Shown: piece by piece, positions 1-22,560 of the stretch | How the letters are laid out: each line of letters starts with the position of its first letter | How positions within the stretch are numbered: position 1 is the first letter of the stretch | Virus genome (UHGV): UHGV-0108392 | Length of the DNA: 26,514 nucleotides | Source: a virus | Direction: 5' to 3' (one strand) | Made by a program: the position numbers and the translations under genes | The notes under the pieces: model-generated | Database searches by the model: none | What the model saw: only the letters and a program-made list of their open reading frames with translations | Told to the model about the DNA's origin: nothing

Positions 1-782
1 GTCGGGCAACAGCAGTACAGGCCAGGGAGATCATCAGCAGCGTATACCGTCACGCCAATGACCGTGGTCATGGTTTGTTTAATCCTGCGGCTGACATTAA
101 ACCTTCGTCTATCGCCATATTTAAACCACGAGAGCGAACACTGACACCAGAAGAAATTGGCCTGTTCTTCCGCACGCTGGATGCCATTGGTGCTATGGGC
201 ACTATGAAAATGGCTTTAAAGCTGGTGCTTATCACTATGGTTCGTAAAGGCGAATTCACCAACGCAACGTGGGATGAAATAGATTTTAAAAAATGGACAT
301 GGACAATTCCTTCAGACCGCATGAAGGGAAGCCGGGCGCACGTTATTTACCTGCCTAAACAGGCACAGGATATATTGGTCGGGCTGCAGATGTGCGCTGG
401 TGGAAGTGAATATCTGGTTCCTGGTCGTTACAACTTCCGGAAGCCATTATCTAATGCCGCGCTGAACTCTCTGATCGACAGAACGGTGAAAATAATAAAT
501 GAAAATGGTGAGCATATTCAGGACTTCACCGTACACGATATGCGCCGTACAGCCAGTACGTTATTGCATGAGGCTGGTTATCCTTCAGACTGGATTGAAA
601 AGGCTCTGGCACATGAGCAGAAAGGTGTGCGCGCCGTATATAACAAAGCGGAATACGCCAGACAGCGCGCCTACATGTTGCAGCAGTGGGCCGATATGAT
701 TGATTCCTGGATTGACGGGGAGCATACGGATCTGATTCCGTTCTCCCCGTCGAAGTTTGAGAAATGGATGGCGGGGGAATAA
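1..782 (+). CDS. int: Tyrosine recombinase (phage integrase), C-terminal portion; 5' end lies outside the window
   Basis: Frame is open from position 3 to the stop at 780-782 with no upstream stop. C-terminal region (VHDMRRTASTLL...GVRAVYNKAEYARQRAYMLQQWADMI) has the His/Arg/Tyr arrangement typical of P4/CP4-57-type integrases. Confidence 0.85.
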   Translation, partial: RATAVQAREIISSVYRHANDRGHGLFNPAADIKPSSIAIFKPRERTLTPEEIGLFFRTLDAIGAMGTMKMALKLVLITMVRKGEFTNATWDEIDFKKWTWTIPSDRMKGSRAHVIYLPKQAQDILVGLQMCAGGSEYLVPGRYNFRKPLSNAALNSLIDRTVKIINENGEHIQDFTVHDMRRTASTLLHEAGYPSDWIEKALAHEQKGVRAVYNKAEYARQRAYMLQQWADMIDSWIDGEHTDLIPFSPSKFEKWMAGE

Positions 783-785
783 CGT

Positions 786-980
786 TTAATTATTCTGCTG
801 ATTTTCTTCCATCTCGGCTTCTGCTGCCAGTGATTCAATTTTATCTGCGAATATTGCTGACAGTGTTGCAAATTCAGCATCAGTGACAGCGGGAATTGGA
901 ACAAACCTGATCCCGCTGTGTGCAAGCATGTTTGCAGTTTCAAGGCATTTCCTTAAATCTGCTGGTGATGCCCTGTTCAT
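786..980 (-). CDS. Hypothetical small protein (64 aa), last gene of the leftward operon
   Basis: ORF whose ATG overlaps the upstream methyltransferase stop (ATGA); convergent with int. No recognisable motif. Confidence 0.3.
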   Translation of the reverse strand: MNRASPADLRKCLETANMLAHSGIRFVPIPAVTDAEFATLSAIFADKIESLAAEAEMEENQQNN

Positions 981-1627
981 GCTGCACGCTCCCGCCCCTG
1001 GTTGTCTGTTGGTGACAGCGGAGAATTGCTGAATGCATTTGTTAATCCGCCAATATCCAACGCGTATCCGGGGTGTAGTTGCACTGCCGGGTCTTCACAC
1101 TGATTACCCCAAACATCGAAGCCATGAGACGTCTGGCGGGCGAACAGTTCAATGCGAGAAACATCGCCTAACAATTGCACAAGTTTTTCACGAACGATAT
1201 CTGGTTTTCTTGAGTGCTCAAGCCGCGGTGCGGTAAATGACTGAACGATCCCTGCATTAATGCGCGTAGGTAGTTTTCCCTTTACTGCAAACAGGCAATC
1301 TTCACTATTGGCGCGAGTCATGTGTCCCATACCCATAACCAGTTTATCTGGTTGTCGACTACCACATTTTATCCACGTGAAGCCCTTCATGGTCATCAGA
1401 CGGAATCCCCAGGCTTCAACAACTTTTAGTGCTTCGAGTGGTTGTGTTGGCACCCACCACATGGCCAACAGACAGTTTTCATCGGCCAAATCCCACACAG
1501 GAAGGCGGCAGATATCCAGCACACTCATAACCGGATATTTAAAACCGGCACCGCGATTACCATCTGCGGCTTTGTCCCGGTATACCCAGGGTGGATCTGC
1601 ATAGATTAGTGTGTATTTCTTAGTCAT
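977..1627 (-). CDS. DNA N6-adenine methyltransferase (MT-A70-like, orphan)
   Basis: N-terminal KYTLIYADPPW motif (DPPW catalytic signature of MT-A70/Dam-like adenine methyltransferases). Start could be 1627 or 1639. No adjacent restriction endonuclease. Confidence 0.7.
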   Translation of the reverse strand: MTKKYTLIYADPPWVYRDKAADGNRGAGFKYPVMSVLDICRLPVWDLADENCLLAMWWVPTQPLEALKVVEAWGFRLMTMKGFTWIKCGSRQPDKLVMGMGHMTRANSEDCLFAVKGKLPTRINAGIVQSFTAPRLEHSRKPDIVREKLVQLLGDVSRIELFARQTSHGFDVWGNQCEDPAVQLHPGYALDIGGLTNAFSNSPLSPTDNQGRERAA

Positions 1628-1919
1628 AAACCACCCCACAACATCCTATGCCGCTATAGTCGCCACGGCGAAGGCCGTTACCTTTTGTGATACATTGGTC
1701 CCTGCGAACCGCGATCCTTGCACGCTCAACATCACCAGAAGCAACATCCATACACTGAAGCCAAAGGTGAGCGGCAATGCGGAACTGCCCTTTTTTCTCT
1801 CTTTCAATCGCGCGTTTTTCGATCTCTATCGCCGCAGGAGTAACGGCGACAATCTTTGACGGACTGCGCATTGAAACCTTGTTCATGTGATATTTTTCAA
1901 GTCGGCTTAACTTTCTCAC
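1620..1919 (-). CDS. Hypothetical protein
   Basis: ORF in the leftward operon, overlapping the methyltransferase start by a few codons. No recognisable domain. Confidence 0.35.
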   Translation of the reverse strand: MRKLSRLEKYHMNKVSMRSPSKIVAVTPAAIEIEKRAIEREKKGQFRIAAHLWLQCMDVASGDVERARIAVRRDQCITKGNGLRRGDYSGIGCCGVVYD

Positions 1920-2028
1920 TTAATCCAACCCTCTCTGAAAATTAATGCCAGCAGATAAAGCCATGCTGAAACAGAGGCCAGGAATAAGTACCATCCTGAC
2001 CATTTGCTCCAGTGCCTTAGAAGCACAC

Positions 2029-2277
2029 TCATGCAGCGTTGCTCACAGGACGATATACACGTTGCTGAACCGGAGGCTTTTTACCCTGGAACTCTGCCGG
2101 GCTTGCTGCCTGACGTTCATCAAGCCAACGCTCAACTTCGTCACGGTTCCATGCGCAGCGTTTGTCAGTGATATACCAGCGTTTAGGAAATTCACCTGCG
2201 CGCTCCATACGGTCGATAGTGCTCCATGACAGTGGCACCACCGCCAGGAGTTCCTTCTTACCTAATGCACCTTTCAT
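2029..2277 (-). CDS. AlpA-family phage regulatory protein / excisionase-like
   Basis: Small HTH protein (LLAVVPLSWSTIDRMERAGEFPKRWYI...WNRDEVERWLDE) typical of AlpA/Xis-type prophage excisionase regulators; sits between integrase and recombination genes. Confidence 0.65.
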   Translation of the reverse strand: MKGALGKKELLAVVPLSWSTIDRMERAGEFPKRWYITDKRCAWNRDEVERWLDERQAASPAEFQGKKPPVQQRVYRPVSNAA

Positions 2278-2326: not shown

Positions 2327-3208
2327 TTACATAGATGTTTCGTTTAATTCTTCCCGACGAACGCTGTAAACGTCGGTGGCTTTTGCCAGCAGTTCGTCAT
2401 CATCTGAAAGTTTTTGTGCAATGTATTTGTAAGCCTTATCCAGTTCGGAGACAGTGCTGTAATTCATCGCTGCGCTGGTAAAGGCCATCAGCATTTCTTC
2501 TGGATCACGGCTATCCGCTTTACGCGTTTGCTCATCAGGCTTTTTCACTGGTTTAGCGTTGATCAGACTGTTCATTCCCGCAGCAGTAGTTGTTTGCGGA
2601 GTAATGTCTCGCTCAACGCGCGGTGCCGTTTCCTGTAATTCGTCAGGGGTGTAAACACCAAGAAGTACATCAGGAGCGTGCAGGCGAGCCCATCGTTTCG
2701 TGCAAAGATAGGCAAGTTGCTGGCGCGGATCCTGTTCCCACAATGGAGAGTTACGCACTCCGGCTTGCGCCATACTGATGGTAAGCTCACGTGGTTCTAC
2801 TTCTCCTTTAAGAACTGCTGACACAGTTACCGTCAGATTCGGTGATTTATCTGTTTTGCCGTTAACATTCGACCAGTCACCGCTCCAGCGATAATTAAGG
2901 CGTGTCGCTAGCAGGCTGGAAGAGGATACGACCGCGTTTACCAACTGTGCTTCGTAGCCTAACGTTCCGTTTACCACATGCGTTTTCTGCGCCACGGCGA
3001 AAGGGTTCATTCCCCACTGTGCCGCCTGCATGGTCACCGCCAGGCAATCGGCAGGTTTGCCTTCAAGATGTTTCGGTACAGTCGCTTTGCTTTGTGACAT
3101 CAACTCCGCGAAACGCACCAGTTGATTCATGCCCTCGGGGCTGAAGATTGCCGCAGCAGTGCCTACAGTTGCGCCTGGTTGTGATGTGATTGCGATATCA
3201 TTGCTCAT
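2327..3208 (-). CDS. Single-strand annealing protein (RecT/Redbeta family recombinase)
   Basis: 293-aa protein with a C-terminal segment (PRVERDITP...) recalling lambda Bet (PERDITPV). Its ATG overlaps the exonuclease stop (ATGA coupling), the classic exo/SSAP pair. Confidence 0.7.
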   Translation of the reverse strand: MSNDIAITSQPGATVGTAAAIFSPEGMNQLVRFAELMSQSKATVPKHLEGKPADCLAVTMQAAQWGMNPFAVAQKTHVVNGTLGYEAQLVNAVVSSSSLLATRLNYRWSGDWSNVNGKTDKSPNLTVTVSAVLKGEVEPRELTISMAQAGVRNSPLWEQDPRQQLAYLCTKRWARLHAPDVLLGVYTPDELQETAPRVERDITPQTTTAAGMNSLINAKPVKKPDEQTRKADSRDPEEMLMAFTSAAMNYSTVSELDKAYKYIAQKLSDDDELLAKATDVYSVRREELNETSM

Positions 3209-4026
3209 ACGTACATATCCTGTTTACGTGCCCAGTCAGGGCGTTTAATAATTTCCACTCCGCCCCATTCATCGTTGATGCGGCATTCGTGATAGGTATT
3301 CAGATCCCGGCGGAACAGAGCGTGCCCGGCATCGACATCTGGCGCATCCAGCTCGAACACGCGTACCGGATACCGACCACAATCAATGCTTTCGCTCACG
3401 GCAAGAAAGAAAAAACCATGCGGCTGACCAGTAACCCTCATTGCGCCTTCGCGGTACATTGCGTCCTGCACGTGGTAGCGGAATTCCTCGATGTGGCGTG
3501 CAAAACGGTCCATATCTGCAACCTTTTTCACGTCGACGATCACGTTGTGCTCGTTCAGCCATTTGTCTGGACGAATTCGGCACAACTCACCCGTCTCTTC
3601 ATCGTTCCAGTACATTGATGCTTCGCAGTAACCAGGTGCTTCCAACATCCAGCGTGCCGCCGGATGAGCCATTGCGCTATCACGCATCAGCTCCAGTTTT
3701 CGCCACTGCTCGACATCAAGTACCGTAATACCCATATCCGCCACATCACGAAGAAATGCTTCTTCGTCAGCTTTACCTTGTTTTGTCCGACGATCGAATT
3801 TCGGTGAAACGATGAAGCGTTTGTCGAATTCTCCAGGTTCCAGAAGCAGGCAGTGCAATGCGGTTCCCATATCCAGTGCAGACTTTTTCTCTTCGTCTTC
3901 TGGTGCTGCCTGAACCCATTTAAGAAGCGCCGGATTCTTGGCAACCATGTCCAGTTGCGACTTACTCACGCCGTCACCTGCGTGGTAGTCTTCGTTGCTG
4001 ATGTCGAAATAAATTCCCGGTTTCAT
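3205..4026 (-). CDS. PD-(D/E)XK exonuclease (RecE/exonuclease VIII C-terminal-domain-like), partner of the annealing protein
   Basis: 273-aa protein with a D...(D/E)xK-type motif (NVIVDVKKVADMD), translationally coupled to the downstream RecT-like gene. Confidence 0.7.
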   Translation of the reverse strand: MKPGIYFDISNEDYHAGDGVSKSQLDMVAKNPALLKWVQAAPEDEEKKSALDMGTALHCLLLEPGEFDKRFIVSPKFDRRTKQGKADEEAFLRDVADMGITVLDVEQWRKLELMRDSAMAHPAARWMLEAPGYCEASMYWNDEETGELCRIRPDKWLNEHNVIVDVKKVADMDRFARHIEEFRYHVQDAMYREGAMRVTGQPHGFFFLAVSESIDCGRYPVRVFELDAPDVDAGHALFRRDLNTYHECRINDEWGGVEIIKRPDWARKQDMYV

Positions 4027-4322
4027 GCCGCGTCCCTCTGCCCATCAAGCTGATCCGCCAGATCCCAGCGCGCTATAATTGCCATTGCCTCGCGCCGGTA
4101 GGCATCCATCAGTTCTTCGAACTCAGGGCTGTCTTTAGCAGCCTCCAGCACTTCCTGACGAACGCCTTTGCCTGTTACAACGTCGAAAGTTGAGGACAGT
4201 TGATGAAGTCGGATGCTCTCAATCAGTTCAACTTGTCGGTCATATAGCTGTTCTGACAGGCGGTAGTCCTTGTCGAATGCCAGCATGATTTTTTGAAGAT
4301 TTTTCTGCTGATTAACGTTCAT
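4023..4322 (-). CDS. Hypothetical protein (about 99 aa)
   Basis: ORF in the leftward early operon; likely start is the MNVNQQ methionine at 4322, which sits 2 nt after the stop of the upstream small ORF. Confidence 0.4.
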   Translation of the reverse strand: MNVNQQKNLQKIMLAFDKDYRLSEQLYDRQVELIESIRLHQLSSTFDVVTGKGVRQEVLEAAKDSPEFEELMDAYRREAMAIIARWDLADQLDGQRDAA

Positions 4323-4324
4323 TA

Positions 4325-4477
4325 TCAGCCCTCCCATATCTCGTTATCGTTGGCCACATCGCGAGCTTCTTTGCTGACGAAAGCCCACTTAATGCCTTCC
4401 TGTAAGGTGCGAAACTTCCAACTCATGAATCCGCATGCAGTAACGCAGTACCAACCGTTGATGATTTTCCACTGCAT
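4325..4477 (-). CDS. Small ORF (49 aa), first gene after the leftward early promoter; not in the supplied ORF track
   Basis: Hand translation of the minus strand gives MQWKIINGWYCVTACGFMSWKFRTLQEGIKWAFVSKEARDVANDNEIWEG with GAGGT 8 nt upstream of the ATG. It occupies the position lambda N would hold, but is not arginine-rich. Confidence 0.25.
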   Translation of the reverse strand: MQWKIINGWYCVTACGFMSWKFRTLQEGIKWAFVSKEARDVANDNEIWEG

Positions 4478-4482
4478 AACTT

Positions 4483-4573
4483 GTTACCTCGGTCTGTTAC
4501 CGTTGAGGTAATAATTATGCGTATTTGGTTTGATGTCAATAGATATGAGTTAAGAAAATTACCTATTAGGTAA
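4483..4573 (-). promoter_or_regulatory. Leftward early promoter region (pL-like) with flanking operator palindromes
   Basis: Minus strand carries a perfect TTGACA -35 followed by an AT-rich -10 region (CATAATTAT). It is flanked by the perfect palindrome TTACCTATTAGGTAA (4559-4573) and by inverted arms TTACCTC...GAGGTAA (4483-4510) overlapping the RBS of the first ORF. Confidence 0.45.
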
Positions 4574-4590
4574 CAGTATAGGCAATAAAA

Positions 4591-4610
4591 AAGCCGCCAG
4601 AAGGCGGCTT
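4591..4610 (-). terminator. Rho-independent terminator downstream of the repressor gene
   Basis: Hairpin AAGCCGCC-AGAA-GGCGGCTT, followed on the minus strand by a T-rich run (TTTTTTATTG). Confidence 0.5.
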
Positions 4611-4630
4611 ACTTACTGAAAAGTATGATT

Positions 4631-5215
4631 TTATTGTTTGTTTTTTTCGTTCTGGTTGATGACAAATTCAATGTAACTTTCGATCTTTGCTTTCTCGGTT
4701 TCGGGTAACAATGCGTAGCGCGAGCGGTCATAGTTGATGGTCGCAGGGTCGTGCGGGTGAATCAGTAATTCATAGCCGTGACGCCCGAATGCGGATGCAA
4801 CATTCTCCAGGGTGGAAATGGAAACGCTGACCTCATTGTTTAACAGGCGGCTGATTGTCACCTGGGCGACGCCGGATGCGCGGTGAAGTTTTCCCTGAGT
4901 TGAAAGGTCGCGGCTTTCGCTCATCCAGCGTTCCAGGTTGTGAGCCGCCAGCTGACCAATGTCGCTTGGGCCGACAGGCTGAAAACCTTCCTGAGAAAGC
5001 GAGCGATCGATATCAAGCCAGTTACGTGGTTTATTGGCGGCAGCTTCAATTTTTCGCGCAACCTGGTCGCCGATAACCTTCTTGCCAAGAGCCCAGCGGT
5101 TTACCAGATTTGCCTGAGTTCCAAGTTTTTCTGCCATCCGCGTCTGAACACCATTGAATTCACGGTCGATCAAGTCGTTGAGATTTTGCCTGCGGACGTC
5201 CTGGATACTTTTCAT
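4631..5215 (-). CDS. Prophage repressor, two HTH-like segments (XRE/CI type), no S24 peptidase domain
   Basis: N-terminal segment (QTRMAEKLGTQANLVNRWALGKKVIGDQVARKIEAAANKPRNWLD) matches the CI-repressor HTH pattern; a second HTH-like segment lies in the C-terminal half. Divergent from a cro-like gene across an operator-rich intergenic region. Confidence 0.6.
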   Translation of the reverse strand: MKSIQDVRRQNLNDLIDREFNGVQTRMAEKLGTQANLVNRWALGKKVIGDQVARKIEAAANKPRNWLDIDRSLSQEGFQPVGPSDIGQLAAHNLERWMSESRDLSTQGKLHRASGVAQVTISRLLNNEVSVSISTLENVASAFGRHGYELLIHPHDPATINYDRSRYALLPETEKAKIESYIEFVINQNEKNKQ

Positions 5216-5369
5216 TTTCTGGAAAATCGCCTCATATATGAATCAGTAGATGATTCAATTTAAAGCAATATTACCCAACAGGTAAATGCACCTCATGGGT
5301 AACTATCCTTGATTTTTGTTACCTTATGGGTGAATATTTATTATCTGAAATAAATATCAGGCAATAGCT
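5216..5369. promoter_or_regulatory. Divergent promoter/operator switch region between repressor and cro-like gene
   Basis: Three operator-like sites related to TTACCT-N3-AGGTAA at 5271-5285, 5288-5302 and 5319-5333. A rightward promoter candidate (TTGATT at 5309-5314, -10 near 5332-5338) has the third operator inside its spacer. Confidence 0.55.
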
Positions 5370-5600
5370 ATGAGCGATAACGGACATTTCGATTTCAAAA
5401 AGCACTGGCTTGCACTTACTCCGGATGAGCGTGAAGCCTTCGCACAGGAAGCCGGAACGACGAGTCACTATATCCAGACTCACTTAACAGGTAAGCGCAA
5501 AATGCCAGGTAATGTATTGATGGATGGGCTTTTTAAAGCCTGTAAATCAAGACAATGGCTGCGCTCAAAAGCAGAACTGGCATACTTCTTCTACTCATGA
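5370..5600 (+). CDS. Cro-like small HTH regulator
   Basis: 76-aa protein with an HTH-like segment (EAGTTSHYIQTHLTGKRKMP); first gene of the rightward operon, opposite the repressor. Confidence 0.5.
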   Translation: MSDNGHFDFKKHWLALTPDEREAFAQEAGTTSHYIQTHLTGKRKMPGNVLMDGLFKACKSRQWLRSKAELAYFFYS

Positions 5601-5750
5601 TATCCAGCCACAACCCTCTGTAGACCGCCATCCGGCGGTCTTTTCATATCTATTCGTACCTCAAAGGTAATAAAAAACCAAATATGGTTGATCTTTTTTT
5701 TGTGTCAGCACAAAATAACCGTAATCCCAATACTAATAACAGGGCTTACC

Positions 5751-5951
5751 ATGGAAATCATTACACGTATTGATGCCGCAAAGCGCGGACTTAAACGCTA
5801 CTACACCGGAAAACCATGTAAGCACGGACATGACAGTGAACGCTGGGTTTACAACGGACACTGTGTTGAGTGCACCATGGAATCAAACCGTCGCATCAGG
5901 GCAGAGATTAAGCAGATCATGATTAATTCCTCCCCACAACACTCAAGCTGA
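5751..5951 (+). CDS. Small Cys/His-rich (zinc-ribbon-like) protein in the cII position
   Basis: MEIITRIDAAKRGLKRYYTGKPCKHGHDSERWVYNGHCVECT with a C-x-H-x-H...H-C-x2-C arrangement. Start is uncertain: the track begins at a TTG at 5688, which would add a hydrophobic N-terminus. Confidence 0.4.
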   Translation: MEIITRIDAAKRGLKRYYTGKPCKHGHDSERWVYNGHCVECTMESNRRIRAEIKQIMINSSPQHSS

Positions 5952-5966
5952 TAGCGGAGATTAATC

Positions 5967-6782
5967 ATGAGCAGACATGCAACAGATTGGGCCTGGGAGA
6001 CAGATCCAGGTAGCTCATCATTAAAGCTCATACTGCTCTCGATGGCTGACAGAGCCGATGAATATAACCTCTGCTACCCCAGCATAGAACGCCTCGTTAA
6101 AGACACTTGCCTGAATAAAAAAACCGTGCAGGCCGGGCTTATATCGCTCATGAAAATGGGGCTTATTTCAGATACCGGAGAGAGAAAGGGAGCGACAAAA
6201 AGAGTGCGGGTTTTCTCTCTTAATATAACCAAAAACGGGAACATTAAAGGCAACCGGGAAGGGGGTAATGAACCCGAAAACGGTAATTTTACCGAAAACG
6301 GGAATATACCCAAAAACGGGATGTTGAATGATCCCAAAAACGGGATGTTGAATGATCCCAAAAACGGGATCCAGAACCAGTCATATAACCAGTCATTTAA
6401 CCAAGAGAGGGAGAGCAGGACAAAAAACGGGGATTCTGTGTCTCATGACCCCGGCGCAAACAACGCCGTGATGAATAACTTTGTTCCTCCTGGTGGGCCA
6501 GGGCAATTAGGCAAATTTGTCATGCATGAACAATGGCAACCATCAGATGACTTTCTTCGGAAAAGCTCATTGCAGGGGATCTACCTGGACAGTCTGCCAA
6601 CGGCACAGGAACTTGCAGAGTTCAGAATTTACTGGATGGCTGAGGGTAAGGCATACCATCAGGCACAGTGGGAGCAGAAGCTGGCAAGGAGGCTGCAGAT
6701 TAGCAGACAGAAGCAATCAACATTACCTGATAACAACGTTCCGCACTGGAACAGCCCTGAAGCATGGGAGGATTTCTTGTGA
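5967..6782 (+). CDS. Replication initiator (O-like; N-terminal HTH, C-terminal DnaT-like region) containing the origin iterons
   Basis: N-terminus (DWAWETD...LKLILLSMADRADEYNLCYPSIERLVKDTCLNKKTVQAGLISLMKMGLI) fits phage replication-initiator HTH proteins. A central repetitive linker is encoded by the iterons. Immediately upstream of the P-like gene. Confidence 0.7.
   Translation: MSRHATDWAWETDPGSSSLKLILLSMADRADEYNLCYPSIERLVKDTCLNKKTVQAGLISLMKMGLISDTGERKGATKRVRVFSLNITKNGNIKGNREGGNEPENGNFTENGNIPKNGMLNDPKNGMLNDPKNGIQNQSYNQSFNQERESRTKNGDSVSHDPGANNAVMNNFVPPGGPGQLGKFVMHEQWQPSDDFLRKSSLQGIYLDSLPTAQELAEFRIYWMAEGKAYHQAQWEQKLARRLQISRQKQSTLPDNNVPHWNSPEAWEDFL
6229..6434 (+). repeat. Iteron array (putative origin of replication) inside the initiator gene
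   Basis: Eight or more direct copies of CC(A/C/G)AAAACGG(G), including two perfect tandem 24-mers CCCAAAAACGGGATGTTGAATGAT (6309-6332 and 6333-6356); these encode the repeated P(K/E)NG peptide. Confidence 0.65.
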
Positions 6783-7564
6783 ACAACGTTTTTACCGCGA
6801 TACAAAACCGTGACGGAGAAGCCCTTTCTCGCATGTCAGGTTATGAGCATCAGTACACCAACAATGACAACGTGGTGAACATGTCAGCAGAGAGGCTTGT
6901 TGATGCCCTTTTCAAACAGCTGAAACAACTGTTTCCGGCGGCAGTGGTAACCAACCTGAAGACGCCAGAGCAGGAAGTTGCTGCAAAACAGCAGTGGATT
7001 GCTGCGTTTGCCGAAGGGGGGATCCGAACCCGTGAACAGGTTTCTGCTGGTATGCGCCACGCCCGCGCCAGTGAGTCTCCGTTCTGGCCGTCGCCAGGGC
7101 AATTCATCAAGTGGTGTAAAGACAGCAAGATGGTTCTTGGCGTCACCATTGACGATGTGATGGCGGAGTTTCACCGGTACAGCAAGGAAAAAAGTTTATA
7201 TCCTGGTGGTCCCGAAAGATTCCCGTGGCGACATCCGGTTATGTACTGGGTCGTATGTGATACCCGCCGTGCAATGTATCAGCGCCAGCTTAGCGAGATT
7301 GAGGTTGAGAAACACGCGCGCAGGCTGCTCGATGATTGGGCGAAAAAGGTAGCTTCCGGACAGCAGATACCCGATCCGGTGATCAGCATACAGGCAAAGC
7401 GAGAGCCCATGAGTACACCTCCGGACACAGGGAGAGACGTTTACCATCCACCAGGGCGAAGTTTCGGGTGCATGCCTAACGCCGCCACCCTTGGGGGAAT
7501 AACACCGGCGCAGTGGCTGATGGAGGAATACAGGCGGGGAAAGGCGGCAGGATTTATCAAGTAA
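6779..7564 (+). CDS. Replication protein P-like (DnaB helicase loader)
   Basis: Clear similarity to lambda P as recalled (REQVSAGMRHARASESPFWPSPGQFIKWCKDS versus lambda MEQVNAGMRVARRQNRPFLPSPGQFVAWCREE). A GTG at 6779 has a GGGAGG RBS and overlaps the O-like stop; an alternative ATG lies at 6764. Confidence 0.8.
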   Translation: MNNVFTAIQNRDGEALSRMSGYEHQYTNNDNVVNMSAERLVDALFKQLKQLFPAAVVTNLKTPEQEVAAKQQWIAAFAEGGIRTREQVSAGMRHARASESPFWPSPGQFIKWCKDSKMVLGVTIDDVMAEFHRYSKEKSLYPGGPERFPWRHPVMYWVVCDTRRAMYQRQLSEIEVEKHARRLLDDWAKKVASGQQIPDPVISIQAKREPMSTPPDTGRDVYHPPGRSFGCMPNAATLGGITPAQWLMEEYRRGKAAGFIK

Positions 7565-14802: not shown

Positions 14803-15009
14803 ATGTGCATGGGTAGCTCACCATCAGTGCCTGCAACACCAGAAGTTCAGGCAGCACCACAGGAGCAGGATGCCGCCGTTGTTGATGCCCGCGACGAAGA
14901 AACTCGTCGCCGTCGCGCTGCTGCTAGTCGTAGTTCTACGCTGCTTACCGGTTCTCAGGGCGACACATCAACCGCTAAGACCAGCGGTAAAACGCTGCTT
15001 GGTCAGTAA
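14803..15009 (+). CDS. Hypothetical small Ala/Arg-rich protein preceding the portal gene
   Basis: ATG with a GGAG RBS; its initiation region CGGAGTCATTGA-ATG is near-identical to that of the portal gene. Confidence 0.4.
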   Translation: MCMGSSPSVPATPEVQAAPQEQDAAVVDARDEETRRRRAAASRSSTLLTGSQGDTSTAKTSGKTLLGQ

Positions 15010-15023
15010 CCGGAGTCATTGAA

Positions 15024-16703
15024 ATGGCGGAAACAACTAAAGAGCGATTGAACAAACAGTTCGCACAACTTGAAAGCGAGCGTCAGTCGTTCGAGCCGCA
15101 CTGGCGCGAGTTGAGTGATTACATCAACCCACGTGGTTCCCGCTTTCTGACTTCTGAGGTCAACCGTAACGATCGACGCAATACACGCATTATTGATTCG
15201 ACCGGGACTATGGCGGCGCGCACTCTCGCCAGCGGCATGATGTCAGGCATCACAAGCCCCGCGCGTCCGTGGTTTCGCCTGGCTACGCCAGATCCTGAAA
15301 TGATGGATTATGGCCCTGTTAAGTTGTGGCTTGAGGCGGTGCAGAACCGCATGAACGATATGTTCAATAAGTCGAATCTCTACCAGTCTCTTCCGCAGTT
15401 ATACGGAAGCCTCGGCACATACAGCACCGGTGCAATGGCGGTACTGGAGGATGACGAGGACATCATTCGCACAATGCCATTCCCGATAGGCAGTTACTAC
15501 CTGGCTAACTCACCTCGTGGCAGTGTGGACACCTGTTTTCGCAAGTTCTCTATGACCGTTCGTCAGCTTGTTCAGGAGTTCGGGCTAAATAACGTCAGCG
15601 AATCCGTAAAAAGCATGTGGGAAAGCGGCACCTACGAGAAGTGGATTGAAGTGATGCATTCGGTTTACCCGAACATTGACCGCGATACATCGAAGCTGGA
15701 TAGCAAGAACAAGCCATTCAAATCGGTTTATTACGAGGTTGGCGGTGATAACGACAAGTTGTTGCGTGAGTCCGGATTCGATGAGTTTCCAATTATGGCT
15801 CCGCGCTGGGAAGTTAATGGCGAAGATGTTTATGGATCATCATGCCCGGGTATGCTGGCGCTTGGACCTGTTAAGGCATTGCAGCTTCTCCAGAAGCGCA
15901 AGTCGCAGTTGATTGATAAAGCCACCAATCCGCCGATGGTTGCTCCGACTTCCCTCAAGAATCAGCGCGCCTCCCTTCTTCCTGGCGACATCACGTATAT
16001 CGATCAGATTACTGGTCAGGATGGATTCAGGCCTGCTTATCTGGTTAACCCCAGTACAGCAGATTTGGTGGCAGACATTCAGGACACTCGTCAAATCATT
16101 AACAGCGCCTACTTTGTCGATCTGTTCATGATGTTGCAGAACATCAATACCCGCTCGATGCCTGTTGAAGCGGTGATCGAAATGAAAGAAGAAAAACTTC
16201 TGATGTTGGGGCCGGTTCTGGAGCGTCTGAACGACGAATGTCTTAATCCTCTCATTGACCGCGCTTTCTCGATGATGGTGCGTAAAAACATGCTGCCGCC
16301 ACCGCCTGACGCGATGGAAGGCATGCCCCTGAAGGTCGAATACATTTCCGTCATGGCTCAGGCGCAGAAGTCTATCGGCCTGTCCAGTCTGGCGTCCACG
16401 GTTAACTTCATTGGTCAACTTGCGCAAGCGAAACCAGAAGCTCTCGACAAACTCAACGTTGATCAGGCGATCGATGCATTCGCTGATATGTCCGGAGTGT
16501 CTCCAACCGTCATTGTTCCGCAGGAACAGGTTGAGCAGGCTCGCCAGCAACGGGCACAGCAGCAACAGCAGCAACAAATGATGGCGATGGGGATGGCGGC
16601 GGCACAGGGTGTCAAGACGCTAAGTGAAGCTAAAACTTCGGATCCGAGTGTGTTGTCAGCTATGGCGAATGCAGTTAGTGGTCAGGGTGGGCAATCACAA
16701 TGA
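15024..16703 (+). CDS. Portal / head-to-tail connector protein (T7 gp8-like)
   Basis: 559 aa; Gln-rich C-terminus (QQQQQQMMAMGMAAAQG) resembles the T7 gp8 C-terminus as recalled; positioned after terminase and before scaffold and capsid. Confidence 0.75.
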   Translation: MAETTKERLNKQFAQLESERQSFEPHWRELSDYINPRGSRFLTSEVNRNDRRNTRIIDSTGTMAARTLASGMMSGITSPARPWFRLATPDPEMMDYGPVKLWLEAVQNRMNDMFNKSNLYQSLPQLYGSLGTYSTGAMAVLEDDEDIIRTMPFPIGSYYLANSPRGSVDTCFRKFSMTVRQLVQEFGLNNVSESVKSMWESGTYEKWIEVMHSVYPNIDRDTSKLDSKNKPFKSVYYEVGGDNDKLLRESGFDEFPIMAPRWEVNGEDVYGSSCPGMLALGPVKALQLLQKRKSQLIDKATNPPMVAPTSLKNQRASLLPGDITYIDQITGQDGFRPAYLVNPSTADLVADIQDTRQIINSAYFVDLFMMLQNINTRSMPVEAVIEMKEEKLLMLGPVLERLNDECLNPLIDRAFSMMVRKNMLPPPPDAMEGMPLKVEYISVMAQAQKSIGLSSLASTVNFIGQLAQAKPEALDKLNVDQAIDAFADMSGVSPTVIVPQEQVEQARQQRAQQQQQQQMMAMGMAAAQGVKTLSEAKTSDPSVLSAMANAVSGQGGQSQ

Positions 16704-16996
16704 CAGATTACGAAGACGATCAACTGAAAGAAGAAAACGCCCGTAAGCAACGTGACATGGCACAGCGTGAAATTGATGACATTCGCTTTGTCATGAGCAG
16801 TGAACAGGGGCGTCGCGTTGTCTGGTCGGTGCTGGAGAAAGGCCGTGTGTTTTCCGCTATCTCTCCGATGGATGCTATGGCAATGGCATTTAATGAGGGG
16901 CAACGCAATCTGGCGCTGGAACTGTTTCAGCGCGTTATGGCGCATTGCCCTGAACAGTATTTGAAGATGGCCAAAGAGGCCAGTGAACAGGAGTGA
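16700..16996 (+). CDS. Hypothetical protein (98 aa)
   Basis: ATG overlapping the portal stop (ATGA); acidic; no known motif. Confidence 0.45.
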   Translation: MTDYEDDQLKEENARKQRDMAQREIDDIRFVMSSEQGRRVVWSVLEKGRVFSAISPMDAMAMAFNEGQRNLALELFQRVMAHCPEQYLKMAKEASEQE

Positions 16997-16998
16997 TC

Positions 16999-17694
16999 AT
17001 GAATTTATTTGAGCGTTTGCTGTATCGCCGTCTTTGCAATGAGCAGCCAGTCGATGGTGGAGCAGCTCCGGCTGCGTCAGAACCGTCAGCGCCTGCAGGT
17101 GATACCCCTGCTCCAGTTGGTGATCCATCACAACAGGAAGGTGATAAGCCACAACCTGTTGCTGATGGCGATAAACCTGCTGATGACAAAAAGCCTGAAA
17201 ACGATAAGCAGGATGAAAAAAAGGGTGGCGATAAACCAGAGGGTGCGCCTGAGAAGTACGAGTTTCAGGCTGCCGAAGGCGTAGAGCTGGATACAGAAGC
17301 GTTGAAGGAATTCGAGCCGGTGGCGCGAGAACTTAACCTGACCAACGAGCAAGCGCAAAAGCTGGTTGATGCTTATCCGAAGATTCTGGCAGGTGTTCAG
17401 CAGCGCCAGGCAGAAGCCTGGCAGAAAACAACCGAGCAGTGGGCTGCGGATGTAAAAGCTGACAAAGAAATCGGTGGCGACAAGTTGATTTCTAACCTTA
17501 GCGCCGCACAGCGTGCGCTTGACCAGTTCGGGACACCTGAACTCAAAGAATATCTGAACACCACCGGGCTGGGTAATCACCCTGATCTGGTCAAAACGTT
17601 CGTGAAAATCGGAAAGGCGATGTCTGAAGATGGCATGGTCACCGGTGGTAATGAAGGCCAGCGTAGTGCGGCCGAAGTGCTCTATGGCAAATAA
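16999..17694 (+). CDS. Putative scaffolding protein
   Basis: Between portal and capsid; acidic, Pro/Ala/Asp-rich low-complexity N-terminus followed by a helical region. Assigned by position and composition only. Confidence 0.55.
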   Translation: MNLFERLLYRRLCNEQPVDGGAAPAASEPSAPAGDTPAPVGDPSQQEGDKPQPVADGDKPADDKKPENDKQDEKKGGDKPEGAPEKYEFQAAEGVELDTEALKEFEPVARELNLTNEQAQKLVDAYPKILAGVQQRQAEAWQKTTEQWAADVKADKEIGGDKLISNLSAAQRALDQFGTPELKEYLNTTGLGNHPDLVKTFVKIGKAMSEDGMVTGGNEGQRSAAEVLYGK

Positions 17695-17702: not shown

Positions 17703-18695
17703 ATGACAATGTCTGTTAAAGGCTTAACTGCGCTAACGCTGGCTGACTGGGGTAAGCGCGTCGATCCAAACGGGAAAGTCGATAAGATTATCGAGCTTCT
17801 CGGTCAAACTAACCCGATCCTTCAGGATATGCCTTTTGTCGAAGGGAACCTTCCTACCGGACACCGAACCACCATTCGTTCTGGTTTACCTTCAGCTACC
17901 TGGCGTTTGCTGAACTATGGCGTACAGCCAAGCAAATCAACCACAGTGCAGGTAACCGATTCCGTTGGCATGCTGGAAACCTATGCGGAAGTCGATAAGT
18001 CACTGGCTGATCTGAACGGCAATACCGCCGAATTCCGCCTGTCTGAAGACCGCGCATTTATTGAAGCGATGAATCAGCAGATGGCGCAGACGCTGTTTTA
18101 TGGTGATTCCAGCGTTAACCCTCAGCAGTTTATGGGACTGTCCTCCCGCTATTCCAGCCTGTCTGCGGGTAATGCTCAGAACATCATTGATGCTGGTGGC
18201 ACGGGTACAGATAACACCTCAATCTGGTTAGTGGTGTGGGGCGAAAACACCGTGCATGGCATCTTCCCGAAAGGGCAGAAGGCTGGCATCCAGATGGAAG
18301 ATAAAGGCCAGGTGACACTGGAAGATGCTAATGGCGGCAAGTACGAAGGCTATCGCACCCATTACAAATGGGATAACGGACTTGCTCTGCGTGACTGGCG
18401 TTATGTTGTTCGCATTGCAAACATCGATGTCAGCAATCTTTCAGAACCTTCCTCTGCCGCAAATATTGCGAAGTTGATGGTTAAAGCACTGCATCGCATT
18501 CCAAACCGTGGCATGGGCCGCCCGGTGTTCTACATGAACCGCACTGTAGGCCAGGCTCTTGATCTGCAGTCTCTGGAGAAAACATCTCTGGCGATTAGCG
18601 TAAAAGAGACTGAAGGCGAGTGGTGGACGTCATTCCGTGGTGTACCAATCCGTGAAACTGATGCGCTTCTGGAAACAGAAGCCCGCGTGGTGTAA
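17703..18695 (+). CDS. Major capsid protein
   Basis: 330 aa, strong RBS (AGAGAGGAA), immediately after the scaffold gene and followed downstream by a strong terminator. Assigned by synteny and size. Confidence 0.65.
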   Translation: MTMSVKGLTALTLADWGKRVDPNGKVDKIIELLGQTNPILQDMPFVEGNLPTGHRTTIRSGLPSATWRLLNYGVQPSKSTTVQVTDSVGMLETYAEVDKSLADLNGNTAEFRLSEDRAFIEAMNQQMAQTLFYGDSSVNPQQFMGLSSRYSSLSAGNAQNIIDAGGTGTDNTSIWLVVWGENTVHGIFPKGQKAGIQMEDKGQVTLEDANGGKYEGYRTHYKWDNGLALRDWRYVVRIANIDVSNLSEPSSAANIAKLMVKALHRIPNRGMGRPVFYMNRTVGQALDLQSLEKTSLAISVKETEGEWWTSFRGVPIRETDALLETEARVV

Positions 18696-18746
18696 CGCCT
18701 GTTATTAACCTGTGGGTCGTAACAGACCCACTAATGGAGAAAGAAG

Positions 18747-19184
18747 ATGATCACCGACAAACTGTTGATGTTCTCCGAAGCTCAGGCGGTTACGAATACC
18801 GCGGCTTCTACTGACGTAATCGATCTCGGTCCAATTGACGGAAAACGTCGTGATATCGGCGTGGGTTACCCGCTTGAGTTTTGGGCGCTGGTTAACACAG
18901 CCGCCGCGGCAAGCGGTGATGCAACTGTAAACATCCAGTTGCAGACGAGTGAGAATAACAGCTCATGGACCACTATTTATGATAGTGGCGCACTGGCAAA
19001 GACCGCCCTGACAGCAGGTAAACGAGTTGTTTCTGCAAAGGTGCCTGCCGGTGTTCAGCGATATCTGCGTGTTAACTACTCCGTCGCAACTGGCCCACTA
19101 ACGGCTGGCGAATTCACTGCTGGTATCAGTCTTGATGTTGATGCCAATACGCCGTATCCGATCCGCTCAAAAGTAACTGGTTAA
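18747..19184 (+). CDS. Hypothetical virion protein (possibly head decoration)
   Basis: 145 aa, Ala/Thr/Gly-rich, in the head module. Assigned by position only. Confidence 0.4.
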   Translation: MITDKLLMFSEAQAVTNTAASTDVIDLGPIDGKRRDIGVGYPLEFWALVNTAAAASGDATVNIQLQTSENNSSWTTIYDSGALAKTALTAGKRVVSAKVPAGVQRYLRVNYSVATGPLTAGEFTAGISLDVDANTPYPIRSKVTG

Positions 19185-19194
19185 GGTGATATCG

Positions 19195-19530
19195 ATGTCA
19201 GGTGAGAAACCAAGATACCGCGTTCTGCGCCTCTCTCATATCCATAACACACTGTGGCCGGAGGGGGCAGAAATCGAATACGAAGGTGAGCCTGGTAGCG
19301 CACTGGAACCTGTTAACGATGCAGCCAGACAGGCAAAAGCAAAAGTTGCAGGAAAGGTGTCAATGGCAGCAACCAGCACCAAAATCATCAACGATGTGTC
19401 AGATGATGGTGAACTGGATAAGCTCCGTGAAGAGTACGAATTGCTCTTTAACGAGAAGCCACACCATAACGCCAAAGCTGAAACGCTCCGCGAGAAGATC
19501 GCAGATAAGCGTAAAGAACTGGGCGTGTAA
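19195..19530 (+). CDS. Hypothetical protein
   Basis: ATG at 19195 with AAGGTG RBS; charged helical product; followed by a terminator. Confidence 0.4.
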   Translation: MSGEKPRYRVLRLSHIHNTLWPEGAEIEYEGEPGSALEPVNDAARQAKAKVAGKVSMAATSTKIINDVSDDGELDKLREEYELLFNEKPHHNAKAETLREKIADKRKELGV

Positions 19531-19547
19531 GCCTCGCGAATCAGACA

Positions 19548-19568
19548 AGGGGCTTCGGCCCCTTTATT
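19548..19568 (+). terminator. Rho-independent terminator after the head-gene cluster
   Basis: AGGGGC-TTCG-GCCCCT hairpin followed by TTATT. Confidence 0.6.
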
Positions 19569-19580
19569 GCAGGAGTGTAT

Positions 19581-19904
19581 ATGGAACTCGTAAACCTCAA
19601 AACCGGCACTGACAGCTACCAGGATGAGAGCGGAGAAACCAGAACTCGCGATGAATACCCGTGGGGGCTGTGCATCACGCTGAATAACGACACATTGAAT
19701 AAGCTGAAGGCGCAACCTCAGGGCGTCGGAACAGAAGTGATGATAACTGCGAAGGCTGTTATTCGAGGCCTGTCTGCCAGAGAAACTGACGATGGTGTTA
19801 ATCGCAGCGCCGATCTGCAGATCACTGATATGGCAATCGCTCCTGTTTCCGGTGATGTAGAAAAATCAGCGGCTGAAACCCTCTACGGTAACGGGGGTGA
19901 GTGA
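19581..19904 (+). CDS. Hypothetical protein
   Basis: ATG at 19581 with GCAGGAG RBS; no recognisable motif. Confidence 0.4.
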   Translation: MELVNLKTGTDSYQDESGETRTRDEYPWGLCITLNNDTLNKLKAQPQGVGTEVMITAKAVIRGLSARETDDGVNRSADLQITDMAIAPVSGDVEKSAAETLYGNGGE

Positions 19905-20509
19905 TGGCCTCTGTAGTAGAGATCTGTAATCGTGCGCTGTCCAATATTGGCAACAGCCGCAGCATTAACAGCCTGACGGAAGCCAGCAAGGAAGCGGGGG
20001 AATGTTCGCTGCATTTTGAGGCCTGTCGTGATGCTGTGCTTTCTGATTTTGACTGGAACTTTGCTACAAAACGCGTGGCGCTTGCAGATACGAGCAATCC
20101 ACCGCCTGACTGGGAATATGCGTACCAGTACCCTTCCGATTGTCTGCGCATTACTGAAATTATGCTTCCTGGTGTACGCAATCCAACAGCAGCAATGCGT
20201 GTTCAGTACGAAGTTGGTGCAGACACCAACGGAACAGGAAAATTGATCTACACAGACCAGCCGCAGGCATGGCTTAAGTATGTCTCTCGCGTTACAGATG
20301 TGAACATGTTTGATGCCATTTTTATGGAGGCGCTGGCCTGGCGTCTTGCGGCAGCTATTAACATGGCGCTGACTGGGAATGCAGACCTCGGTACGTTTGC
20401 CCTCAATATGTACAATCGCGTGATTCTTAGTGCTGGCTCGCATAGCCAGAATGAATCACAGGAACCACAGCCACCGGTTGATGAGTTTACCATTGCGAGG
20501 TTGTCCTGA
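19904..20509 (+). CDS. Tail tubular protein A-like (T7 gp11-like adaptor), tentative
   Basis: About 200 aa, same size class and position as T7 gp11; weak N-terminal pattern similarity (ALSNIGNSRSINSLTE versus T7 ILASIGEPPVSTLE as recalled). Confidence 0.45.
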   Translation: MASVVEICNRALSNIGNSRSINSLTEASKEAGECSLHFEACRDAVLSDFDWNFATKRVALADTSNPPPDWEYAYQYPSDCLRITEIMLPGVRNPTAAMRVQYEVGADTNGTGKLIYTDQPQAWLKYVSRVTDVNMFDAIFMEALAWRLAAAINMALTGNADLGTFALNMYNRVILSAGSHSQNESQEPQPPVDEFTIARLS

Positions 20510-22560
20510 TGGCTATCAGTTGGATCCAGCCCAGCTTTGCCGGTGGTGAGATTGGACCGTCGTTGTACGGTCGTATCGACATGGCGAAGTACCAGGTGGC
20601 ATTGCGCAAGTGCGATAACTTTATCGTGCGGCAGTATGGCGGCGTTGAGAATCGACCTGGTACGCGTTTTGTCGGTGCCGCCAAATACCCAAATCGGAAA
20701 TGCCGCCTGATCCCGTTCCAGTTCTCGACGGTTCAGACCTATGCTCTGGAGTTCGGGCACCAGTACATGCGCGTTATCAAAGATGGTGCGTTGGTGCTGA
20801 ACAGCAGCAATGTTATTTATGAAATTGCCACGCCATATACTGAAGCCGATCTGTTCCGAATTAAATTTACGCAAAGCGCCGACGTGCTTACGCTGGTTCA
20901 CCCGGCATACCCGCCGAAAGAGTTGCGCCGCTATGCGCATGACAACTGGCAACTGGTTGATGTGGTAACGAAGAACGGGCCATTTGAAGATATCAATATT
21001 GACGAGTCAGTGACGGTTTATGCCAGCGCCAGCACCGGGACAATTACGTTAACAGCAAGCGCCTCTATTTTTGGCGCGGAGCAGGTAGGCAAATTGTTCT
21101 ATCTGGAACAGCCTGCAGTGGATTCAGTGCCGGTATGGGAAACCAGTAAGAGTACGTCGATTGGCGATATTCGCCGTGCAGACAGTAACTACTATCGCGC
21201 CGTTACAGCAGGCAAAACAGGCACTTTGCGCCCTTCGCATACAGAAGGCACATCATGGGATGGCTGGGGCGGATCCGGTGATGATGATACTGGCATTGAG
21301 TGGGAATATCTGCACAGTGGTTTTGGCATTGCCCGTATCACTGCTGCAAATGGAACTACTGCAACTGCCGAGGTGATTTCCTATATCCCTTCGCAGGTCG
21401 TTGGCGAGGATAATGCCAGCTATAAATGGGCTAAATATGCCTGGAACAGTGTTAATGGTTATCCTGGCACTGTTGTTTATTATCAACAACGTCTTTACTT
21501 CGCCGCATCGACTGCGTTCCCTCAGACTATCTGGGCCAGCCGTACCGGGGATTATAAGGATTTTGGCAAAAGCAATCCTACGCAGGATGACGACAGAATT
21601 ATCTACACCTATGCCGGGCGTCAGGTTAATGAGATCCGCCACCTGATTGATGTCGGTTCGCTGGTGGCACTGACTTCCGGAGGTGAGTACGTCATCACCG
21701 GCGACCAGAACAAAGTGTTAACCCCATCATCATTTGCATTCAGCTCTCAGGGATCAAATGGCTCGAGCAATGTCCCACCAATTGCTGTGGCGAATATTGC
21801 TCTGTTCGTCCAGGAGAAAGGCAGCGTTGTCCGTGATCTGGCCTACTCATTCGATGTTGACGGCTATCAGGGGAACGACCTGACCATCCTTGCCAATCAT
21901 CTTTTTCAGAAGCACAGCATTGTTGACTGGTGCTTCTCGATTGTCCCTTACTCCAGCGCCTTCTGCATTCGTGATGACGGTAAATTACTGGTGATGACCT
22001 ATTTGCGTGATCAGCAGGTTTTTGCATGGGCACCACAGTCCAGTACCGGAAAATATGAAAGCACATGCAGTATCAGCGAAGGCAATGAAGATGCGGTGTA
22101 TTTCGTCGTTAACCGAACCGTTAACGGGCAAGCAGTGAGATACATCGAGAGACTGTCCAGCCGTTTATTTACCAGCGATGAAGACGCTTTCTTTGTTGAT
22201 TCTGGCCTTAGCTATGATGGAAGAAATACGTCTGACAGAACGATGATCATCACTGGTGGTTCTGGTGAATGGGATTACCGCGCGGAATATACAATCAGTG
22301 TTTCTGGTGGTGCGTACTTCACCAGTAGTGATGTCGGTGCGCAACTACAGTTCCCTTATGCCGGAACTGATCCTGATACTGGCGATGAAGTGTCAAAAGA
22401 ATTACGTTGCGACATTATTTCTGTAACCAGCAATACCGCTGTAGTGGTTCGTCCTAACAGGAACGTCCCGCCATCCCTCAGGAATGTGGCCACCACGAAC
22501 TGGCAGATGGCGCGCCGGGCATTTGGCGGCTTGTCTCATCTTGAAGGTCAGACCGTAAAC
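20509..22560 (+). CDS. Tail protein (tail tubular B / nozzle-like by synteny); phage-derived N-terminal ~684 codons of an ORF that runs in frame into foreign DNA
   Basis: Enterobacterial-type composition and codon usage up to about 22560; the same ORF (track 20509..24012) then continues in frame into lower-GC sequence, so the native 3' end is missing. Functional call is by gene order only. Confidence 0.45.

Follow-up and report, generated by a model that had tools for sequence, protein, structure and literature searches.

The left 22.5 kb of an ordinary Escherichia coli Uetakevirus prophage in a chimeric metagenomic contig

The window analysed here is a stretch of 26,514 nucleotides (nt) catalogued as UHGV virus genome UHGV-0108392; it is the first 26.5 kb of the 31728-nt ENA contig ERZ1303912 NODE_105 (SPAdes, coverage 2.55). 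An initial annotation, made from the letters alone, had read most of it as a mosaic phage genome in which a lambdoid early region was joined to a T7-like structural module. We put the probability at about 93% that positions 1-22562 are the left 22.5 kb, from mid-integrase to mid-nozzle, of an ordinary E. coli Uetakevirus prophage, misassembled at the right end. The phage is of the phiV10/TL-2011b/PAS61 type, related to Salmonella phage epsilon15, and the type is common, temperate and already described. Gene calls were checked with Pfam, PHROG and NCBIfam scans, and the genes at the locus are as follows (lengths in amino acids, aa).

3-782, plus strand: tyrosine integrase, C-terminal 259 aa only (PF00589, E 5.4e-20); the contig begins inside the gene
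786-2277, minus strand: DUF1382, MT-A70 adenine methyltransferase, PerC-like activator and AlpA-like excisionase/regulator (PF07131, PF05063, PF06069, PF05930; phrog_868, phrog_66)
2327-4337, minus strand: recombination module of RecT, exonuclease and a 104-aa protein
2327-3208, minus strand: RecT (PF03837, E 2.6e-31)
3205-4026, minus strand: PDDEXK RecE-type exonuclease (PF12684, E 1.7e-21)
4631-5215, minus strand: prophage repressor, 194 aa, HTH_3 (PF01381, E 1.2e-9)
5370-5600, plus strand: Cro-like repressor, divergent from the prophage repressor (phrog_35, E 3.5e-12)
5967-6782, plus strand: replication initiator with HTH_36 N-terminus and DnaT C-terminus (PF17948, E 1.1e-15; PF13730, E 1.8e-10)
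6764-7564, plus strand: lambda P-type helicase loader, a true lambda P homologue (PF06992, E 1.5e-56)
7682-11446, plus strand: variable accessory genes (DUF1064, DUF7739, Ea22-like, HNH, DUF551, ASCH-like, 113-aa putative regulator, 77-aa protein)
10875-11216, plus strand: 113-aa putative transcriptional regulator (phrog_536, E 1.3e-53), next-to-last gene before the late region
11521-13589, plus strand: TerS (open reading frame, ORF, open from 11443; likely start 11521) and TerL (PF03592, E 1.4e-29; phrog_51, phrog_2)
13680-14375, minus strand: island of a 139-aa gene and tRNA-Arg
14299-14375, minus strand: tRNA-Arg(UCU) (ARAGORN; Rfam tRNA, 73 bits)
14803-16996, plus strand: gp3-like 68-aa gene, portal and Bbp19-like protein (PF12236, PF25181)
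15024-16703, plus strand: portal (PF12236 Head-tail_con, E 1.5e-187; PDB 8ck0 portal, E 2e-178)
16993-17694, plus strand: scaffold-position protein, 233 aa, called 'protease' in databases (phrog_458)
17703-19904, plus strand: capsid cassette of major capsid protein, Bbp16-like cement protein, 114-aa protein and Gp10-like capsid protein (PF20911, PF21190, PF21628)
17703-18695, plus strand: major capsid protein (PF20911; PDB BPP-1 capsid protein 3j4u, E 9e-129)
19901-20509, plus strand: tail adaptor, 202 aa (T7 gp11/tail tubular protein A fold in a structure model)
20509-22562, plus strand: tail nozzle, first 684 of 824 codons, cut by the junction (PDB 8ck1_A, E 2.7e-182; T7 gp12 fold)
22541-22562, no strand: chimeric junction at the 22-mer TTGAAGGTCAGACCGTAAACAT, which occurs both in the nozzle gene of the phage and in a Lachnospiraceae element

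The integrase, the RecT/exonuclease pair, the repressor/cro switch and the O/P-like replication genes all lie where the initial annotation had placed them, and the late genes that it named were likewise confirmed. A megablast search of the window against 50,697 phage records aligned positions 1-22562 with PAS61, phiv142-3, HEMP4, ZX5 and TL-2011b at 97.5-98.2% nucleotide identity and 72-80% query coverage; the alignment with phiV10 begins at 11426 and runs rightward. PAS61, a named Uetakevirus species, reached 80% coverage at 97.8% identity, a comparison that covers the 22.5 kb available. This was the best coverage among phage records, against 92% (at 98.1% identity) for the top match among E. 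coli prophages, that of strain MINF_2E (NZ_LR890651); a prophage with at least 80% of positions 1-22562 was present in 423 of the 5426 complete E. coli genomes, roughly 8%. At the protein level, the structural genes were all 97-100% identical to those of near relatives (per-gene tblastn), the integrase was 98-99% identical to the integrases of TL-2011b, phiV10 and PAS61, and the repressor was 100% identical to that of PAS61 and 42% identical to that of epsilon15. The order integrase, recombination, repressor/cro, replication, terminase, portal, capsid, adaptor, nozzle is shared with the maps of TL-2011b, PAS61, phiV10 and epsilon15, and the signature families of the genus were found: PF20911 (GP7 capsid, E 2e-149), PF21628 (Gp10-like staple, E 1e-51) and PF12236 (portal).

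Species of Uetakevirus include phiV10, epsilon15, SPN1S and PAS61, and the matched phages belong to or cluster with this genus. Membership is set at a genome-wide nucleotide similarity of at least ~70% to a member (ICTV's criterion for a genus). Judged by the 22.5 kb available, the phage would fall within that range; the remaining ~17 kb of the genome lie off the contig. The ~98% collinearity with Uetakevirus phages and the 423 E. coli carriers therefore mark a common, described temperate phage type, and the comparison with temperate podoviruses that had been proposed as a check thus took away the novelty of the mosaic, the whole 22.5 kb being collinear with an established genus. The assignment to a temperate podovirus-type phage held up: close relatives at ~98% identity bear vB_EcoP (podovirus) names, and a short tail is reported for ZX5 (PMC9782041). 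Two points weigh against our reading. The contig holds part of the prophage only, too little to judge its integrity, att sites, tailspike and lysis genes, and the index lists the contig under two samples, which, if these were independent read sets, would weaken the case for a chimera.

The evidence for a chimera is the following. Matches to E. coli and to phages all end at 22562, none of the 5426 E. coli genomes continues beyond that position, and the joint is carried by no E. coli genome, phage or plasmid record searched. From 22541 rightward the window agrees in every letter with an element of many gut metagenomes, the right part being 100% identical to it over 3952 nt. Suilimivivens aceti, Waltera hominis, a Ruminococcus metagenome-assembled genome (MAG) and a Lachnospiraceae MAG also carry this element, and the 22-mer at the joint has exact copies in it as well as in natural alleles of E. 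coli prophages. Positions 22563-26514 hold genes for an ArdA-like protein (full length 542 aa), for a DUF4314 protein and a D12-class adenine methyltransferase, and for AbrB/MazE-like proteins; the element runs on to the contig end, and SpoVG, YodL, HipA and Tad/Flp pilus genes come next. Guanine-cytosine (GC) content drops and GC skew jumps at ~22.5 kb. The junction cuts both genes mid-ORF, leaving the nozzle without its last 140 codons and the ArdA-like gene without its first ~59, and the frames agree across it, which creates a false 1167-aa nozzle-ArdA-like ORF (20509-24012). In a complex metagenome, two sources can be expected to have a 21- or 22-mer in common by chance, and SPAdes by default takes 21 as its smallest k. 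The contig is a de Bruijn-graph chimera that joins the phage to a gut Lachnospiraceae mobile element, and what lies right of 22562 is not phage. The mosaic as first delimited ended at 22560 because the contig is chimeric there; this is no biological boundary.

The window could instead be one real element of 26.5 kb, its nozzle genuinely fused to an ArdA-like antirestriction domain and followed by the methyltransferase and AbrB-like genes. The open 1167-aa frame and the listing under two samples speak for such a fusion; a random joint, however, leaves the frame open one time in three, and the identity of the right part to the element in the Suilimivivens, Waltera, Ruminococcus and Lachnospiraceae genomes, the truncation of both genes at the joint, the exact 22-mer in a low-coverage SPAdes contig and the absence of the joint from the records searched make a genuine fusion very improbable. 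It would be an error to read a 1167-aa 'tail-ArdA fusion' from this contig, or to assign a host on the basis of all of it. In other contigs the element is inserted beside a gene of the tRNA-U5 methyltransferase family, and for the DUF4314 protein identical copies are entered in 1090 index blocks.

The likeness of the structural genes to T7 is real, deep and partial. Pfam scans of T7's own proteins, used as reference, gave nine families: PF12236 (gp8), PF05396 (gp9), PF21703 (gp10), PF17212 (gp11), PF25675 (gp12), PF11090 (gp13), PF24072 (gp14), PF11123 (gp18) and PF22530 (gp19). Only PF12236 was matched by window proteins, through the portal, which scored 624 bits as against 379 bits (E 2.8e-113) for T7 gp8 itself; the proposed gp8-like portal is therefore of the same family as its T7 counterpart. 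The PF17212 Tube and PF25675 models, which the suggested searches with hidden Markov models of structural proteins had also named in substance, were unmatched at E<=0.01, and the T7 families of scaffold (PF05396), capsid (PF21703) and terminase (PF11123, PF22530) were matched by no window protein. Pairwise BLASTP of the portal and nozzle against T7 gp8 and gp12 was not significant, and tblastn of all 36 window proteins against T7 19000-39937 (gene 7 to the right end) gave no match at E<=1e-3.

Structure models reached further than sequence. The AlphaFold model of the adaptor (predicted local distance difference test, pLDDT, 84.7) matched in Foldseek the Carin-1 connector (8ck1_E; E 7e-17, template modelling (TM) score 0.85) and T7 gp11 (7box_M; E 2e-6, TM 0.59); further T7-group adaptors, among them the tail tubular protein A of KP32, also matched. 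A profile of 23 adaptor sequences, too shallow at an effective sequence number (Neff) of 2.2, gave an hhalign E of 0.9 against the single T7 gp11 sequence. For the 684 nozzle residues present, the model (pLDDT 85.4) matched the Carin-1 nozzle (E 1e-64) and then T7 gp12 (6r21_a; E 1.6e-15) and other T7-group nozzles. In the PDB, a profile of 24 nozzle sequences matched the tail tubular protein B of cyanophage A4 (E 6e-10); the profile also aligned with T7 gp12 residues 351-465 (hhalign E 1.2e-4), within the same central region of gp12 in which Hardies et al. (PMC4819975) found significant similarity between epsilon15 gp12 and T7 gp12 (gp12 354-556). The same authors related the tubular tail A and internal virion proteins of epsilon15 to those of T7 and grouped its terminase and capsid with siphoviruses, so that the deep relation between epsilon15 and T7 has been in print since 2016; the epsilon15 GenBank record also notes that, by HHpred, gp11 resembles T7 tail tubular protein A.

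Structural alignments of the adaptor and nozzle to T7 gp11 and gp12 show 12-14% identity; the split is therefore ancient. Adaptor and nozzle are distant homologues of gp11 and gp12, not members of their families at the sequence level. Portal, adaptor, nozzle and gene order are related to T7 at great depth, and terminase, scaffold, capsid and cement proteins are not. What survives of the 'T7-like structural module' is the portal family, two folds and the order of five genes. Similarly, the T7 late order stood for portal, scaffold, capsid, adaptor and nozzle and failed in two respects, the terminase lying before the portal and three small genes lying between capsid and adaptor. For portal, adaptor and nozzle the relatives found were T7 gp8, gp11 and gp12 rather than the siphovirus or myovirus families that had been named as contrary evidence.

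These results bear on two further explanations, both even less probable than the fusion. The first is a new, recent hybrid between a lambdoid phage, giving the early genes, and a T7-like phage, giving the structural genes. It would explain the lambda P homologue, the portal of the T7 gp8 family with its gp11- and gp12-fold neighbours, and short patches at 8240-10887 that are 90-97% identical in nucleotides to Stx-converting, HK022, 933W and P22-like phages. As a recent event it is refuted: the whole 22.5 kb is ~98% collinear with prophages of E. coli in their hundreds and with a genus already described, there is no nucleotide or BLAST-level similarity to Autographiviridae, identity to gp11 and gp12 is at the low level given above, capsid, scaffold and terminase fall outside the T7 families, and DNA common to lambdoid phages is limited to the accessory genes at 8240-10887. 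What looks like lambdoid plus T7 is the group's ancestral design, with no recent join. A P22-like structural module unrelated to T7, as might be argued from the terminase upstream of the portal, the Ea22/Ead-like accessory genes common to P22-like phages and the presence of P22 gp10 among the nozzle fold matches, can be dismissed with similar assurance, since the portal is of the T7 gp8 family, the capsid is PF20911 with BPP-1-type cement proteins, and P22 gp10 (E 1.2e-7, TMq 0.31) ranks far below the T7-group adaptors and nozzles.

The ordinary Uetakevirus prophage carries one feature that may explain how its late genes are kept silent. The palindrome TTACC-N5-GGTAA occurs in 10 copies in the window (<=1 mismatch) where 0.35 are expected, and none of 100 shuffles reached 10. 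All 10 copies are intergenic. They lie, together with the terminators, as follows.

4497-4573, no strand: two operator-like palindromes (4497, 4559), left of the repressor gene and upstream of the leftward early operon
5271-5333, no strand: two operators (5271, 5319) between repressor and cro
5622-5641, plus strand: intrinsic terminator after cro (fold -15 kcal/mol, z -5.3)
5656-5670: operator after the cro terminator
7602-7678, no strand: two operators (7602, 7664) ahead of the accessory-gene operon, syntenic in TL-2011b and PAS61
11452-11469, plus strand: intrinsic terminator (-15.8 kcal/mol, z -4.4), then UUUAUUUU
11489-11503 and 11507-11521: two operators directly before the terS ATG at 11521
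14698-14712, no strand: operator ahead of the gp3-like/portal operon
19547-19564, plus strand: terminator-like hairpin with GC stem and UUCG loop, then UUUAUUG

A sigma-70-like promoter (5316-5344) overlaps the second repressor/cro operator. Exact copies of the palindrome lie at syntenic places in TL-2011b, PAS61, phiV10 and epsilon15, and the palindrome is absent from T7 and from Firmicutes loci. The arrangement of terminator and operators before terS is conserved in the same four phages, and the operator at 14698-14712 is kept in epsilon15 despite a diverged upstream flank. In the epsilon15 record AY150271.2, copies of this motif bear the annotation of repressor sites; among them are the copies ahead of terS, of gp3/portal and of the tailspike gene.

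Scans of the predicted proteins at 5370-11446 turned up no Q, N, holin, endolysin or spanin family, in agreement with the initial annotation, which had seen neither Q nor a lysis cassette between replication and packaging and had proposed non-lambda late control. The lysis cassette is missing from that interval because the genus has its lysis genes elsewhere: complete relatives carry holin, endolysin and Rz/Rz1 at the far end of the late region, between the tailspike and O-antigen-modifying gene on one side and int on the other, and this region falls off the ends of the window contig. T7-like phages encode a single-subunit RNA polymerase; no RNA polymerase family was found among the predicted window proteins scanned with Pfam, nor do the records of complete or near-complete relatives that were examined annotate one.

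With no Q, and with a conserved and annotated palindrome heading the rightward units, direct repression of the late operons is therefore favoured, although we hold this model tentatively and at somewhat less than even odds. The prophage repressor would shut each late promoter directly by way of the TTACC-N5-GGTAA ahead of each rightward unit, and terminators would insulate the units from read-through, the terS unit also following a strong intrinsic terminator; late operons would thus be held off at operators rather than turned on by an antiterminator or late activator. The rightward operons so controlled would comprise the terminase, the T7-gp8-family portal, the scaffold, the epsilon15/BPP-1-type capsid and cement proteins, and the gp11-like adaptor and gp12-like nozzle. 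Two considerations tell against the model: binding of the repressor to the palindrome rests on annotation and inference, experiments not having been found in the literature searched, and the 113-aa phrog_536 protein and the PerC-like protein are candidate late activators. The stoperators of mycobacteriophage L5 are a loosely comparable genome-wide operator regulon. If correct, the layout of operators and terminators at the late operons would offer a simple account of late-gene silencing in a temperate podovirus that has no Q.

In Pfam the repressor matched HTH families only and showed no S24 (LexA-like) autocleavage peptidase domain, and relatives carry antirepressor genes (Ant, Bro-N) in a genome region that the contig does not reach; together these suggest that induction may be antirepressor-mediated. 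A canonical terminator directly after the capsid gene, resembling T-phi of T7, was considered and rejected, the hairpin there (18712-18731, -13.6 kcal/mol) having no U-run. The claim of a terminator after the capsid therefore fails at that position and is better placed three genes downstream, at the hairpin 19547-19564 between the 114-aa and Gp10-like genes, where epsilon15 has annotated terminators; this hairpin might be likened to T-phi, in a loose sense.

From gene content, the early region would provide integration and excision through the tyrosine integrase and the AlpA-like excisionase, immunity through the HTH repressor facing the Cro-like gene, recombination through the RecT/PDDEXK-nuclease pair, and the start of replication through the iteron-bearing initiator and the lambda P-type helicase loader. 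Neither RecT and the exonuclease nor the lambda P-like gene had a tblastn match in epsilon15; the recombination module therefore varies within the genus. In the PAS61 record (OQ921333), both RecT and the exonuclease (3560-5259) are named 'RecT'. The initiator gene contains iterons at 6264-6403 (18 bp x3, 24 bp x2.6 and 12 bp x2.4), a stretch that also codes for an Asn/Gly-rich repeat of the protein and is probably the replication origin. The description of the replication genes as O/P-like was borne out for P. For O it applies to layout only: judged by its HTH_36/DnaT domains and the lack of a lambda O family match, the initiator appears to be no lambda O homologue.

The accessory genes at 8240-10887 appear to mark a zone of active exchange. 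The accessory genes (DUF7739, Ea22-like, HNH, 129-aa, DUF551, ASCH-like and, at 11213-11446, 77-aa) are unlike those of the closest Uetakeviruses. Four of them, the DUF7739, HNH, 129-aa and 77-aa genes, lack counterparts in the four relatives compared and match lambdoid phages instead. The 113-aa putative regulator, without a Pfam or NCBIfam match, is 77% identical to its epsilon15 counterpart and was also found by tblastn in N15 (gene 46), ZF40, phiKO2 and Yersinia phages.

In the late region, identities to epsilon15 are 94% for TerL, 80% for the portal, 75% for the scaffold, 66% for the Bbp19-like protein, 85% for the adaptor and 87% for the nozzle. The capsid cassette (17703-19904) has 36-43% identity to epsilon15, as against 66-95% for the flanking late-region genes, and the capsid protein is nearer to BPP-1 (E 9e-129 in the PDB) than to epsilon15 gp7 (E 3.6e-85); the pattern therefore points to a probable exchange of the cassette within the structural module. 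For TerL, searches of Pfam, NCBIfam and PDB sequences were uninformative. So were those of NCBIfam and PDB sequences for the protein in scaffold position, to which we assign a putative scaffold role from position and composition; it has no peptidase or other Pfam domain, and the 'protease' label is therefore without domain support. In complete relatives, internal virion proteins, the tailspike and the lysis cassette follow the nozzle. A search for literature on PDB codes 8CK0, 8CK1 and 8CJZ turned up no relevant paper. The portal coding sequence (CDS) of PAS61 (OQ921333, 15937-18144) appears to be annotated too long.

The tRNA-Arg(UCU) gene lies between TerL and portal, opposite to the late-gene strand, and is also found in TL-2011b and PAS61; the TL-2011b RefSeq record has a CDS annotated antisense across it (14239-14490) and lists no tRNA. 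The 64 megablast matches to Synechococcus phages consist of the tRNA-Arg gene only (S-RIM2-type phages, ~90% identity). An Rfam scan of the whole window found the tRNA only, and a permissive scan of 14100-14810 added nothing credible. A non-coding-looking segment at 14369-14616, without an Rfam or ARAGORN match, shares ~82-84% identity with DNA of phages mEp460 and 2H10 that carries no annotation. Its sub-segment 14454-14616 resembles P1 and P7, lying in P1 between ban and trnI, and the segment adjoins a phage tRNA gene in the window and in P1.

The phage type and its relation to T7 were thus already known, the object is an ordinary one, and the window carries little weight as a discovery. T7 shares with the window phage the order portal, scaffold, capsid, adaptor, nozzle; in relatives, genes for internal virion proteins and for a fibre or spike come next. 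T7 differs in having no terminase upstream of the portal, no three small genes (Bbp16-like, 114-aa, Gp10-like) between capsid and adaptor, and none of the extra cement and staple proteins, and it is lytic, whereas the window phage, with integrase and repressor, is temperate. Lambdoid phages (lambda, HK022, 933W/Stx, Rac) share the divergent repressor/cro pair with operators, RecET-type recombination, and an initiator gene that contains iterons and precedes a lambda P homologue. The lambdoid N, Q and post-Q lysis cassette were not found among the proteins scanned of the window phage, which, unlike lambdoid phages, has operators also at its late operons and no S24 domain found in its repressor; the phiV10 record classes its integrase as P4-type, again unlike lambdoid phages.

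Closer in structure is the BPP-1/BcepC6B/Carin-1 group, with which Bbp16 and Bbp19 homologues are shared; the portal, adaptor and nozzle of Carin-1 are the nearest solved structures to those of the window phage. The hosts are other (Bordetella for BPP-1, Burkholderia for BcepC6B, Carin-1 being marine), and similarity is at the protein level only, 33-45% for the Carin-1 tail proteins. Epsilon15, the type of the group and known from cryo-electron microscopy structures (3J40, 3C5B), shares the architecture, carries the palindrome at corresponding places and has the same pre-terS terminator, with other replication and recombination genes. The nearest phages, PAS61, phiv142-3, TL-2011b, ZX5 and phiV10, have the same repressor, operator motif, tRNA-Arg and pre-terS terminator, and differ in the accessory block at 8.1-11.4 kb. 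The architecture of the window phage, lambda-style lysogeny and replication with a podovirus head-tail module, is the one already described for epsilon15, phiV10 and their relatives.

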